From assembly GCF_044324785.1 (NCBI RefSeq), contig NZ_CP172127.1: a stretch of DNA of 64,000 nt; one strand, written 5' to 3'. Below, piece by piece: positions 8,782-60,539 of this stretch. This DNA comes from Escherichia coli (GTDB lineage: Bacteria > Pseudomonadota > Gammaproteobacteria > Enterobacterales > Enterobacteriaceae). The notes under the pieces were generated by a model. The model saw nothing but the letters and a program-made list of their open reading frames with translations. It ran no database searches and was not told the DNA's origin. Numbering within the stretch: the first letter of the stretch is position 1; every line of letters starts with the position of its first letter. Made by a program: the position numbers and the translations under genes.

Positions 8782-9903
8782 ATGTCAAAAGTCGCTCTCA
8801 TCACCGGTGTAACCGGACAAGACGGTTCTTACCTGGCAGAGTTTCTGCTGGAAAAAGGTTACGAGGTGCATGGTATTAAGCGTCGTGCATCGTCATTCAA
8901 CACCGAGCGCGTGGATCACATTTATCAGGATCCACACACCTGCAATCCGAAATTCCACCTGCATTATGGCGACCTGAGTGATACCTCCAACCTGACGCGC
9001 ATTTTGCGTGAAGTGCAGCCGGATGAAGTGTACAACCTGGGTGCAATGAGCCACGTTGCGGTTTCTTTTGAGTCACCGGAATATACCGCAGACGTTGATG
9101 CGATGGGTACGCTGCGCCTGCTCGAGGCGATCCGCTTCCTCGGTCTGGAAAAGAAAACCCGTTTTTATCAGGCTTCTACCTCTGAACTGTACGGTCTGGT
9201 GCAGGAAATTCCGCAGAAAGAGACCACGCCGTTCTATCCACGCTCTCCGTATGCGGTCGCCAAACTGTATGCCTACTGGATCACCGTTAACTACCGCGAA
9301 TCCTACGGCATGTACGCCTGCAACGGTATTCTCTTTAACCATGAATCCCCGCGCCGCGGCGAAACCTTCGTTACCCGCAAAATCACCCGCGCAATCGCCA
9401 ACATCGCTCAGGGGCTGGAGTCGTGCCTGTACCTCGGCAATATGGATTCTCTGCGTGACTGGGGCCATGCCAAAGACTACGTAAAAATGCAGTGGATGAT
9501 GCTGCAACAGGAACAACCGGAAGATTTCGTTATTGCCACCGGCGTTCAGTACTCCGTGCGTCAGTTCGTGGAAATGGCGGCGGCACAACTGGGCATCAAA
9601 CTGCGCTTTGAAGGCACGGGTGTTGAAGAGAAGGGCATTGTGGTTTCCGTCACCGGGCATGACGCGCCGGGCGTTAAACCGGGTGATGTGATTATCGCCG
9701 TTGACCCGCGTTACTTCCGTCCGGCTGAAGTTGAAACGCTGCTCGGCGACCCGACCAAAGCGCACGAAAAACTGGGCTGGAAACCGGAAATCACCCTCAG
9801 AGAGATGGTGTCTGAAATGGTGGCTAATGACCTCGAAGCGGCGAAAAAACACTCTCTGCTGAAATCTCACGGCTACGACGTGGCGATCGCGCTGGAGTCA
9901 TAA
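8782..9903 (+). CDS. gmd: GDP-mannose 4,6-dehydratase
   Basis: 373 aa, N-terminal [11 protein letters not shown]ossmann motif; matches E. coli Gmd. Confidence 0.95.
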
Positions 9904-55689: not shown

Positions 55690-56235
55690 ATGATGATTTT
55701 GGTGACGGGGGGCGCACGGAGCGGGAAGAGTCGCCATGCAGAGGCGCTTATTGGGGACTCTTCACAGGTTCTGTATATCGCCACCTCTCAAATCCTTGAT
55801 GATGAGATGGCTGCACGGATAGAACATCATCGGCAAGGCCGCCCGGCGCACTGGCACACAGTGGAGCGCTGGCAACATCTTGATGAATTAATTCATGCAG
55901 ACATTAACCCGCATGAGGCTGTGTTGCTGGAATGCGTTACCACAATGGTGACTAATCTGTTGTTTGATTATGGCGGCGATAAAGACCCTGATGAATGGGA
56001 TTATCAGGCGATGGAACAGGCGATTAATGCTGAGATTCAGTCGTTGATTGCTGCCTGCCAACGTTGCCCCGCAAAGGTTGTATTAGTGACTAACGAAGTG
56101 GGAATGGGGATTGTGCCGGAGAGTCGTCTGGCACGACATTTTCGTGATATTGCCGGGCGGGTAAATCAGCAGCTGGCCGCTGCGGCAAATGAAGTGTGGC
56201 TGGTGGTTTCGGGTATTGGAGTAAAAATCAAATGA
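55690..56235 (+). CDS. cobU: Adenosylcobinamide kinase / adenosylcobinamide-phosphate guanylyltransferase
   Basis: 181 aa from ATG at 55690 ([15 protein letters not shown]-loop); matches E. coli CobU. Confidence 0.9.
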
Positions 56236-56975
56236 GTAAATTATTTTGGGCGATGCTCTCTTTTATTACGCGTCTGCCTGTGCCGCGTCGCTGGTCCCAG
56301 GGACTGGATTTCGAGCATTATTCTCGCGGTATTATTACTTTTCCTTTAATTGGTTTATTGCTTGGCGCGATTAGCGGGCTGGTCTTCATGGCGTTGCAGG
56401 CATGGTTTGGCGTACCACTGGCGGCACTGTTTAGCGTGCTGGTGCTGGCGCTTATGACCGGAGGATTCCACCTGGACGGCCTCGCCGATACCTGTGATGG
56501 CGTATTTTCTGCACGTAGCCGCGATCGCATGTTGGAAATCATGCGTGATAGCCGTTTAGGTACCCACGGCGGTCTGGCATTGATTTTTGTTGTACTGGCA
56601 AAGATTTTGGTGTTAAGCGAGTTGGCTCTGCGTGGCGAACCGATCCTTGCATCGCTGGCGGCAGCATGTGCGGTCAGCCGCGGGACTGCCGCATTATTGA
56701 TGTATCGTCATCGTTATGCCCGGGAAGAAGGGCTTGGCAATGTGTTCATTGGCAAAATTGATGGGCGACAAACCTGCGTCACACTCGGCTTAGCCGCTAT
56801 TTTTGCTGCCGTATTATTGCCGGGTATGCATGGTGTGGCTGCTATGGTGGTGACGATGATGGCGATTTTCATCCTCGGTCAGCTTCTCAAACGTACGCTG
56901 GGCGGGCAAACCGGCGATACGCTGGGAGCAGCCATAGAGCTTGGTGAACTGGTCTTCCTGCTGGCACTGCTATAA
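56232..56975 (+). CDS. cobS: Adenosylcobinamide-GDP ribazoletransferase (cobalamin synthase)
   Basis: 247 aa membrane protein from ATG at 56232 ([11 protein letters not shown]...); matches E. coli CobS; 4-nt overlap with cobU. Confidence 0.9.
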
Positions 56976-58130: not shown

Positions 58131-59063
58131 ATGCGTCGTGTAAATATTCTTTGCTCATTTGCTCTGCTTTTTGCCAGCCATACTAGCCTGGCGGTAACTT
58201 ATCCATTACCTCCAGAGGGTAGCCGTTTAGTGGGGCAGTCGCTTACTGTAACTGTTCCTGATCACAATACCCAGCCGCTGGAGACTTTTGCCGCACAATA
58301 CGGGCAAGGGTTAAGTAACATGCTGGAAGCGAATCCGGGCGCTGATGTCTTCTTACCGAAGTCAGGTTCGCAACTCACCATTCCGCAGCAACTGATTTTG
58401 CCCGCCACTGTTCGTAAAGGGATTGTGGTTAACGTCGCTGAGATGCGTCTTTATTACTACCCACCAGACAGTAATACTGTGGAAGTCTTTCCTATTGGTA
58501 TCGGCCAGGCTGGGCGAGAAACCCCGCGTAACTGGGTGACTACCGTTGAACGTAAACAAGAAGCACCAACCTGGACGCCAACGCCGAACACCCGGCGCGA
58601 ATATGCGAAACGAGGGGAGAGTTTGCCCGCATTTGTTCCTGCGGGGCCCGATAATCCCATGGGGCTGTACGCGATTTATATTGGCAGGTTGTATGCCATC
58701 CACGGTACCAATGCCAATTTTGGTATTGGGCTCCGGGTAAGTCAGGGCTGTATTCGTCTGCGCAATGACGATATCAAATATCTGTTTGATAATGTTCCTG
58801 TAGGTACTCGTGTACAAATTATTGATCAGCCAGTGAAATACACAACGGAACCGGATGGTTCAAAGTGGCTGGAAGTTCATGAGCCGCTGTCGCGCAATCG
58901 TGCTGAATATGAGTCTGACCGAAAAGTGCCATTGCCGGTAACCCCATCTTTGCGGGCGTTTATCAACGGGCAAGAAGTTGATGTGAATCGCGCAAATGCT
59001 GCGTTGCAACGTCGATCGGGAATGCCTGTGCAAATTAGTTCTGGTTCAAGACAGATGTTTTAA
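58131..59063 (+). CDS. ldtA: L,D-transpeptidase LdtA (ErfK)
   Basis: 310 aa; signal peptide; YkuD-domain catalytic motif ...[20 protein letters not shown]...; matches E. coli ErfK. Confidence 0.9.
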
Positions 59064-59085
59064 GAACGTTGGTAATTAGAAAGCA

Positions 59086-59113
59086 AAAAGCCTGCTTGAA
59101 AGCAGGCTTTTTT
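59086..59113. terminator. Bidirectional terminator between ldtA and the convergent tRNA-Asn
   Basis: Stem agcctgctt/aagcaggct flanked by A5 and T6. Confidence 0.6.
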
Positions 59114-59118
59114 GAATT

Positions 59119-59194
59119 TGGCTCCTCTGACTGGACTCGAACCAGTGACATACGGATTAACAGTCCGCCGTTCTACCGACTGAACTACAGAGGA
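59119..59194 (-). tRNA. asnV: tRNA-Asn (GUU anticodon), asnV-equivalent by synteny
   Basis: 76 nt, reverse complement equals TCCTCTGTAGTTCAGTCGGTAGAACGGCGGACTGTTAATCCGTATGTCACTGGTTCGAGTCCAGTCAGAGGAGCCA; cloverleaf with GTT anticodon and encoded CCA. Confidence 0.95.
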
Positions 59195-59449
59195 ATCGTG
59201 TGAACGGGGCGCATATTAATGGCAGTGCATGGTGATGTCAAAGGGTGAAATGCATTTTTTTGTTTGTTTGCTGTCAATTTCAACAAAGTGGTGAGCTTTC
59301 AATCTTATTGGGTAATGAACCATCGTGGTGCATACCCTCCTTTTATAGGGCAGGGGAACGCGACAGCTGATTAAAGGAGCCAATGACGAATCTATCATAA
59401 TCTCTTATTTGACAGTTGGTTAGCTTGTACATCAACGCCAAAATAAAAC

Positions 59450-59465
59450 TGGCAAGCATCTTGCA
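59450..59465 (+). promoter_or_regulatory. Sigma-54 (RpoN) -24/-12 promoter of nac
   Basis: TGGCAAGCATCTTGCA = GG-N10-GC with TGGCA/TTGCA elements, ~55 bp upstream of the nac ATG; nac is known to be NtrC/sigma-54 dependent. Confidence 0.75.
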
Positions 59466-59520
59466 ATCTGGTTGTAAGTAATGGCGGCACTTGGGCCGAT
59501 TCTTAAAAACCGGAGGCAAC

Positions 59521-60438
59521 ATGAACTTCAGACGCCTGAAATACTTCGTAAAAATTGTAGATATTGGTAGCCTGACCCAGGCTGCTGAAGTATTGCATAT
59601 CGCACAACCAGCGCTCAGTCAGCAGGTTGCCACACTGGAAGGTGAGTTAAATCAACAACTTTTGATTCGCACAAAACGGGGCGTTACGCCAACTGACGCC
59701 GGAAAAATTCTCTATACCCATGCGCGGGCCATTTTACGTCAGTGTGAGCAGGCCCAACTGGCGGTGCATAACGTTGGTCAGGCATTATCGGGGCAAGTCT
59801 CGATTGGCTTTGCGCCAGGAACCGCTGCGTCATCCATCACCATGCCCTTATTACAGGCGGTTCGCGCTGAATTTCCGGAGGTTGTTATCTATCTTCATGA
59901 AAATAGCGGTGCAGTGCTTAACGAAAAACTGATAAATCACCAACTCGATATGGCGGTGATTTATGAGCATTCCCCTGTGGCTGGTGTATCCAGTCAAGCT
60001 TTACTGAAAGAAGATCTTTTTCTGGTAGGAACTCAAGATTGCCCGGGGCAAAGCGTTGATGTTAATGCTATTGCGCAAATGAACCTCTTTCTCCCAAGTG
60101 ATTACAGTGCTATTAGACTTCGTGTTGATGAGGCTTTTTCCCTACGGCGACTCACGGCAAAAGTCATTGGTGAAATTGAGTCTATTGCCACGCTTACCGC
60201 AGCGATTGCCAGCGGCATGGGCGTTGCAGTATTACCCGAATCGGCCGCGCGTTCGTTATGTGGCGCAGTAAATGGTTGGATGTCACGCATTACCACTCCT
60301 TCCATGAGTCTCTCTTTGTCATTAAATTTACCCGCCAGAGCGAACTTATCGCCACAGGCACAGGCAGTGAAAGAGTTGTTAATGTCAGTGATGAGTTCTC
60401 CAGTGATGGAAAAAAGGCAGTGGCAATTGGTGAGCTAA
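59521..60438 (+). CDS. nac: Nitrogen assimilation control protein Nac (LysR family)
   Basis: 305 aa from ATG at 59521 (MNFRRLKYFVKIVDIGSLTQAAEVLHIAQPALSQQV... HTH); matches E. coli Nac. Confidence 0.9.
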   Translation: MNFRRLKYFVKIVDIGSLTQAAEVLHIAQPALSQQVATLEGELNQQLLIRTKRGVTPTDAGKILYTHARAILRQCEQAQLAVHNVGQALSGQVSIGFAPGTAASSITMPLLQAVRAEFPEVVIYLHENSGAVLNEKLINHQLDMAVIYEHSPVAGVSSQALLKEDLFLVGTQDCPGQSVDVNAIAQMNLFLPSDYSAIRLRVDEAFSLRRLTAKVIGEIESIATLTAAIASGMGVAVLPESAARSLCGAVNGWMSRITTPSMSLSLSLNLPARANLSPQAQAVKELLMSVMSSPVMEKRQWQLVS

Positions 60439-60539
60439 GCATTATATCGGGATGGAATAAGATGCGGGTTTTTATTATTTGTTATGCCGGGCATTAGACT
60501 TTAACAATAACGGGAAATCTGAACTGCCCGGAGTTTACC

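Follow-up and report, generated by a model that had tools for sequence, protein, structure and literature searches.

The sequence upstream of nac in an Escherichia coli chromosome is almost certainly the known sigma-54-dependent promoter nacp

We analyzed a 64,000-nucleotide stretch of an Escherichia coli chromosome (contig NZ_CP172127.1), referred to below as the window. The 17-mer CTGGCAAGCATCTTGCA at 59449..59465 on the + strand is, with very high confidence, nacp, the sigma-54-dependent (−24/−12) core promoter that serves nac, here on a chromosome of the Escherichia coli type. This assignment draws on direct reading of the bases, scoring with a weight matrix, identity with K-12 and conservation across related genera. 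The nac promoter found here is already known and has its textbook form, and for the present strain its functional role is extrapolated from K-12 and Klebsiella.

The motif TGGCAAGCATCTTGCA occurs a single time in the 64-kb window, at 59450-59465 on the + strand. To assign a site to the sigma-54 class, we required that TGGCAC-N5-TTGCW hold a GG and a GC dinucleotide separated by exactly one helical turn and two further bases. In this motif, GG occupies 59451-59452 (−25/−24) and GC occupies 59463-59464 (−13/−12), giving the canonical −24/−12 spacing, and the only mismatch to the consensus is at position 6, where A replaces C (TGGCAA, not TGGCAC). The initial annotation had read the motif as a sigma-54 match with correct −24/−12 spacing, and its position, strand and spacing were all verified. 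The end of the motif is separated by 55 nt from the nac ATG (59521). Bonocora et al. 2015 (PMC4591121) take the start as the motif centre plus 19; on this basis, the predicted nac transcription start on the + strand is the A at 59476, 12 nt past the C of the GC element. The nac transcript would start near this position and carry a 45-nt leader. Direct reading places the nac Shine-Dalgarno sequence GGAGG at 59512..59516 (+), and GGaGGCA immediately 5′ of the ATG is kept across 80 nac loci. Folding of the leaders from six loci revealed no shared structure. An Rfam scan of 59000-60700 returned tRNA only, with the remaining matches far under their gathering scores, and thus the nac leader contains no known RNA element.

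The downstream gene (59521..60438, + strand) encodes a LysR-type nitrogen assimilation control regulator of 305 aa. Its identity as nac, as named in the initial annotation, was borne out by the NCBIfam equivalog NF008410, which matched all 305 residues with 599.5 bits against a cut-off of 309, and by the RefSeq annotation of nac in the matching genomes. The gene order around the promoter is cobS-cobT-ldtA-asnV-nac-cbl, as in E. coli; the open reading frame preceding the nac region is the L,D-transpeptidase gene ldtA, the tRNA-Asn gene asnV (59119-59194, − strand) is divergent from nac, and cbl follows at 60540..61490 on the + strand (NCBIfam NF009324, 682.5 bits). When we searched 5,426 complete E. 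coli genomes with a 1.5-kb query (59050-60600) running from the 3′ end of ldtA through asnV and nac to the 5′ end of cbl, 5,424 contained a match with identical annotation. The best match reached 99.6% identity (strain N3), at least 99% was found in four records only, and most matches were at 95-99%. In a set of one genome per species, the nearest Nac, at 99%, belonged to 'Escherichia sp. MOD1-EC7003'. Judged from these identities, the window may belong to an Escherichia lineage that has been sampled less. The 326-nt asnV-nac spacer aligns without gaps to that of K-12 MG1655 and differs by two substitutions, at 59381 (C in the window, A in K-12) and 59437 (G in the window, A in K-12), both outside every element described here.

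A pattern scan of the 101 nt that separate nac from cbl (60439-60539) found no terminator-like site, and because the two genes are not separated by such a site, co-transcription of cbl with nac by read-through is likely. The NtrC target in K-12 has likewise been given as nac-cbl (Brown et al. 2014, PMC4066584), and the sigma-54 nac promoter may also feed cbl. On the other side of the spacer, a 12-bp hairpin at 59085-59112 (AAAAAGCCTGCTT-GAAA-AGCAGGCTTTTT), with T-runs on both strands, is flanked by the 3′ ends of ldtA (+) and asnV (−) and, by its sequence, looks like a shared bidirectional terminator for these genes. In K-12, sigma-54 ChIP-seq gave a weak antisense site inside ldtA, the intragenic IA16 (CTGGTCGATAATTTGCA; fold above threshold, FAT, 1; PMC4591121). 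The orthologous bases of the window, at 58813-58829 on the − strand, are CTGATCAATAATTTGTA; both GG and GC are lost, and IA16 is therefore not conserved even within Escherichia.

To score the promoter, we derived a weight matrix from Table 1 of Bonocora et al. 2015 (PMC4591121), using its 41 intergenic sense sigma-54 sites other than nac. With this leave-one-out matrix, 59449-59465 was the best 17-mer on either strand of the window at 17.6 bits, compared with 14.2 bits for the runner-up and a median of 16.1 bits for the 41 known training promoters. The second-tier matches, at 13.3-14.2 bits, were located at 56128-56144, 8833-8849, 56497-56513 and 33260-33276, all on the + strand, and at least two of them lie inside or adjoin cobS. 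None has a counterpart among the high-stringency sites of the K-12 ChIP-seq tables (PMC4591121), and they are probably chance matches.

We then compared 80 nac loci obtained by scanning one genome per species in more than 20 enterobacterial genera, including Escherichia, Citrobacter, Enterobacter, Lelliottia, Kluyvera, Kosakonia, Klebsiella, Raoultella, Leclercia, Siccibacter, Phytobacter and Pseudocitrobacter. In all 80 loci, TGGCA-N6-TTGCA was the best matrix match within 400 nt upstream of nac (14.7-18.5 bits), ending 46-59 nt before the ATG. In the alignment of the 80 distinct upstream sequences, the ten core bases TGGCA and TTGCA were invariant, whereas the six bases between them were 46-99% conserved and the rest of the 270-nt upstream region showed a mean identity of 48% to the window. 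No other 5+6+5 window in this 270-nt alignment of 80 sequences was fully invariant. Read from the alignment, an invariant core around a variable spacer is the footprint expected under selection on the two sigma-54 contact elements.

The same comparison, extended to 81 loci, brought out a CT-rich pentamer resembling an anti-Shine-Dalgarno sequence (e.g. CCTCC) within 25 nt 3′ of the −12 element in 32 of them; those with the pentamer just 3′ of TTGCA include L008, L030, L037, L041, L066 and L068. Among the 81 loci compared, the pentamer was absent from the window and the other Escherichia loci. It recalls the CT-rich 'insulator' motifs described for some sigma-54 promoters (bioRxiv 10.1101/086108).

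Published experiments on K-12 apply to letter-identical promoter sequence. In K-12, CTGGCAAGCATCTTGCA has been mapped by sigma-54 ChIP-seq as site OS19 of nac, with a peak at 2060018, a FAT of 24, a predicted start-to-nac distance of 45 and the flag 'C' for experimental confirmation in EcoCyc (Bonocora et al. 2015, PMC4591121). That study took nac as its positive control for genes induced when nitrogen is limiting, and nac RNA rose. Genomic SELEX (gSELEX, in vitro genomic binding-site selection) also placed peaks of both the RpoN holoenzyme and NtrC in the nac/asnV spacer (Shimada et al. 2021, PMC8743547). Together with the top matrix match and the invariant core in 80 loci, the identity with OS19 upheld the proposal that a sigma-54 promoter lies upstream of nac. 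We converted K-12 coordinates by equating the motif centre, 2060021 in U00096.2, with window position 59457 in opposite orientation and without indels. On this scale, an NtrC ChIP-seq peak at 2060143 falls at window position 59335 (Aquino et al. 2017, PMC5217608 Table S1). Another NtrC ChIP-seq peak in K-12 lies at nac-cbl (Brown et al. 2014, PMC4066584); its interval, 2059941-2060021, reaches from the centre of the promoter motif a short way into the nac coding sequence and is off the enhancer described below by about 150 bp, a discrepancy that counts against the assignment. NtrC-dependent expression of nac under nitrogen limitation, the further claim of the initial annotation, was supported by K-12 NtrC binding and by the induction data. 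In synthetic enhancer circuits, moreover, the E. coli nacp has functioned as a sigma-54 promoter dependent on NtrC. That sigma-54, NtrC and Nac bind is established for K-12, and their binding would hold for the present strain by analogy. The start of nacp in E. coli K-12 was reportedly mapped by Muse & Bender (1998, J Bacteriol 180:1166), and the Klebsiella nac promoter was reportedly footprinted by Feng, Goss, Bender & Ninfa (1995, J Bacteriol 177:5523 and 5535).

An NtrC enhancer had been suggested about 100-150 bp upstream, and a site of this kind is present. NtrC enhancer site 1, TGAACCATCGTGGTGCA, occupies 59316..59332 on the + strand and has one mismatch to TGCACC-N5-GGTGCA; its centre at 59324 lies about 152 nt from the predicted start (about −152). 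The EcoCyc NtrC site at nac (K-12 2060154) converts to 59324, exactly the centre of the site that we had found independently. The best NtrC-like site was at −150 to −153 in 72 of 81 nac loci, with at most two mismatches in 68 of those. In 2,000 random 250-mers, a site with at most two mismatches appeared in 0.6%, and one with at most one mismatch in none. A conserved block, CCTCCTTTTATAGGGCA, at 59336..59352 (+), centred at about −132, is a candidate NtrC site 2, lying 20 bp, or roughly two turns of the helix, away from site 1. In other genera the consensus of this block is TACCcCTnATGGGGCA, and seven loci, Kluyvera georgiana L037 among them, have their best NtrC-like site, with one mismatch, in the element at about −130. 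In the window, 7 of its 12 specified bases are mismatched, with the right half AGGGCA alone resembling the consensus, and the site is absent among the EcoCyc sites quoted in PMC5217608 Table S1. Its conservation and spacing suggest that 59336-59352 may act as a second, low-affinity NtrC site.

Between the NtrC enhancer and the sigma-54 promoter lies a Nac operator, ATC-N9-TAT (also T-N11-A), at 59394..59408 on the + strand, with its centre at 59401 (about −75). The operator was recognized by consensus, conservation and its EcoCyc coordinate. It has one mismatch to the Nac consensus ATA-N9-TAT (PMC5217608 supplement), and AT (59394-59395) and CTTATT (59404-59409) are conserved among nac loci. 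The EcoCyc Nac site at nac (K-12 2060077) converts to 59401, the exact centre of the operator found independently. A Nac ChIP-seq peak at 2060104 converts to 59374, 27 bp off the operator centre, and is weak, with a coverage of about 5 (Additional file 3 of PMC5217608). In Klebsiella, Nac that occupies DNA between enhancer and promoter is known to repress its own gene by interfering with DNA bending or looping (PMC11495319, PMC4740811). The matching position and the weak K-12 Nac ChIP-seq peak suggest, by analogy, that Nac may likewise repress nac from the operator at 59394-59408.

A bare consensus match proves nothing in 64 kb. In shuffled windows, about 3.5 matches with at most one mismatch are expected and one was observed, and 16.5% of shuffled windows contain at least one site that equals the matrix score of nac, with a mean of 0.195 sites per ~128,000 positions. 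A functionless chance match to the sigma-54 consensus would account for such numbers, were it not for where the site lies: it is in the correct spacer and orientation, and when the shuffle mean is scaled to the 326 nt between asnV and nac, read in the nac orientation, the expectation is only about 5e-4. The significance of the motif therefore derives from its top matrix rank, the right spacer and strand, and conservation, and not from the pattern alone. The core is also invariant in 80 loci while the flanks diverge, and sigma-54 binds the identical K-12 sequence in vivo (PMC4591121). Because of this conservation and the ChIP data, we regard chance as excluded, with a probability that is negligible.

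Binding does not in itself mean firing, and Bonocora et al. emphasize that firing may never occur at many sigma-54 sites (PMC4591121). The motif might accordingly be a non-productive site that, as many intragenic ones do, holds polymerase, with nac depending on a different promoter, such as one of the sigma-70 type. However, a pattern scan found no sigma-70-like promoter on the + strand of the asnV-nac spacer, an NtrC enhancer stands at the right distance, nac RNA goes up under nitrogen limitation (PMC4591121), and nacp drives a reporter NtrC-dependently in synthetic circuits; this explanation is very improbable, if somewhat less remote than chance. A different reading starts from the inverted repeat GCAAG-CAT-CTTGC within the motif, which is followed on the minus strand by CAGTTTTATT and could form a minus-strand intrinsic terminator; the pattern scan does flag 59464-59452, with 5 pairs, as terminator-like. 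Yet the stem has merely 5 pairs around a 3-nt loop, three such sites occurred in the 1.6 kb scanned against 1.9 expected in shuffles, and no minus-strand gene reads into the hairpin. A partial palindrome is, besides, inherent in the GCA...TGC of the −24/−12 consensus. In other genera, changes in the spacer such as GCATTCATATTGC and GCAAGCAAATTGC disrupt the stem and are not compensated, while both TGGCA and TTGCA remain constant. With its pairing lost in other genera, the terminator-like hairpin inside the promoter motif was rejected, and its likelihood is as slight as that of a chance match. The motif is best read as the sigma-54 promoter of nac.

The closest known system is nacp of E. coli K-12 MG1655, which has the same CTGGCAAGCATCTTGCA and the same 55-nt gap to the ATG, NtrC and Nac sites identical in sequence and position, and the shared order ldtA-asnV-nac-cbl. 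It differs by two bases in the 326-nt spacer, and the flanking genes are more diverged. The Klebsiella pneumoniae locus of our set (L078) has the same architecture as the window: its TGGCA-N6-TTGCA promoter lies 56 nt before the ATG, its NtrC site is at −152 and the second element at about −133, the Nac region contains CTTAT, and the tRNA-Asn gene is divergent. The Klebsiella promoter spacer is AAGCAAA, whereas that of the window is AAGCATC. NtrC site 1 of Klebsiella is TGCACCGTTGTAGTGCG, and its second element, TACCCCTAATGGGGC, is nearer to a palindrome than the Escherichia one. The nac promoter of Klebsiella aerogenes/pneumoniae is repressed by Nac, and sequence comparison points to a correspondence between its sites and those of the window. 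The E. coli glnAp2 and glnK promoters have the same −24/−12 core class and the same activator, NtrC, looping from upstream sites. The quoted EcoCyc list (PMC5217608) gives five NtrC site positions for glnA and one for nac. According to one proposal, NtrC must exceed a threshold before nac and glnK fire. Unlike glnAp2 and glnK, the nac promoter carries an operator for its own product.

These elements can be arranged in a mechanism for the present strain. Sigma-54 RNA polymerase would bind the −24 GG and −12 GC at 59449-59465 and stay there as a closed complex, a state that is an established property of the sigma-54 holoenzyme. Under nitrogen limitation, phosphorylated NtrC would occupy 59316-59332 (about −152), probably aided by the weak adjacent site at about −132, whose helper role in NtrC binding is suggested by its position. 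NtrC would then oligomerise, loop the intervening DNA to the polymerase and open the promoter with ATP hydrolysis, as is established for this class of activator. Transcription would begin near the predicted start at 59476, run through the 45-nt leader and the Nac coding sequence, and probably read through into cbl. Nac in turn would pass the nitrogen signal to sigma-70 promoters, and Nac bound to ATC-N9-TAT (59394-59408) would hinder the loop and damp its own synthesis.

The asnV-nac spacer also contains the promoter of asnV, recognized by direct reading and scanning at 59213-59288 on the minus strand. Its −35 hexamer TTGACA (59241-59236), 17-nt spacer and −10 hexamer TAATAT (59218-59213) constitute the only good sigma-70 match in the asnV-nac spacer, and it has a discriminator rich in GC, GCGCCCCG, and, upstream, a stretch rich in A. 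The block at 59264-59288 is conserved, with the consensus GTTTGCTGAcaaaaTCAGCAA in 80 loci; it is an inverted repeat of 7 bp, and its centre lies about 71 nt from the likely asnV start. This block (..GA-N7-CAGCAAAC) recurs in the window upstream of asnU (61528-61603, −) and asnW (63352-63427, +), two tRNA-Asn genes that flank yeeO and have an anticodon identical to that of asnV. The three tRNA-Asn copies lie within 4.3 kb, and their promoters are paralogous. We considered 59264-59288 as a third NtrC site and rejected it, since the paralogous asnU and asnW carry the block at an equal distance from the −35 hexamer; because of this recurrence, it is a tRNA-Asn promoter element and not a nac enhancer. 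In a speculative reading, the tRNA-Asn promoter is of the growth-rate type, with 59264-59288 as its upstream activating block. Judged from its bases, the block is Fis-site-like in shape; a search for literature linking asnV with Fis yielded nothing relevant. The centre of the block is 47 bp from that of NtrC site 1, an arrangement kept in 19 of the 20 genera sampled. The 326-nt spacer may be common to two opposed regulatory programmes, and it is conceivable, albeit improbable, that a bend made by a nucleoid protein at 59264-59288 could couple growth phase to the NtrC loop. If this were true, growth-phase signals would, through the DNA bend, shift the threshold at which nac fires.

The cross-genus comparison yields a modest by-product, namely a description of the invariant core, the NtrC site at about −152, the second element at about −132 and the Nac operator. 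The biological meaning of nacp, as the link that passes the sigma-54/NtrC response to nitrogen starvation on to sigma-70 promoters by way of Nac, is textbook knowledge, and the window leaves it unchanged.
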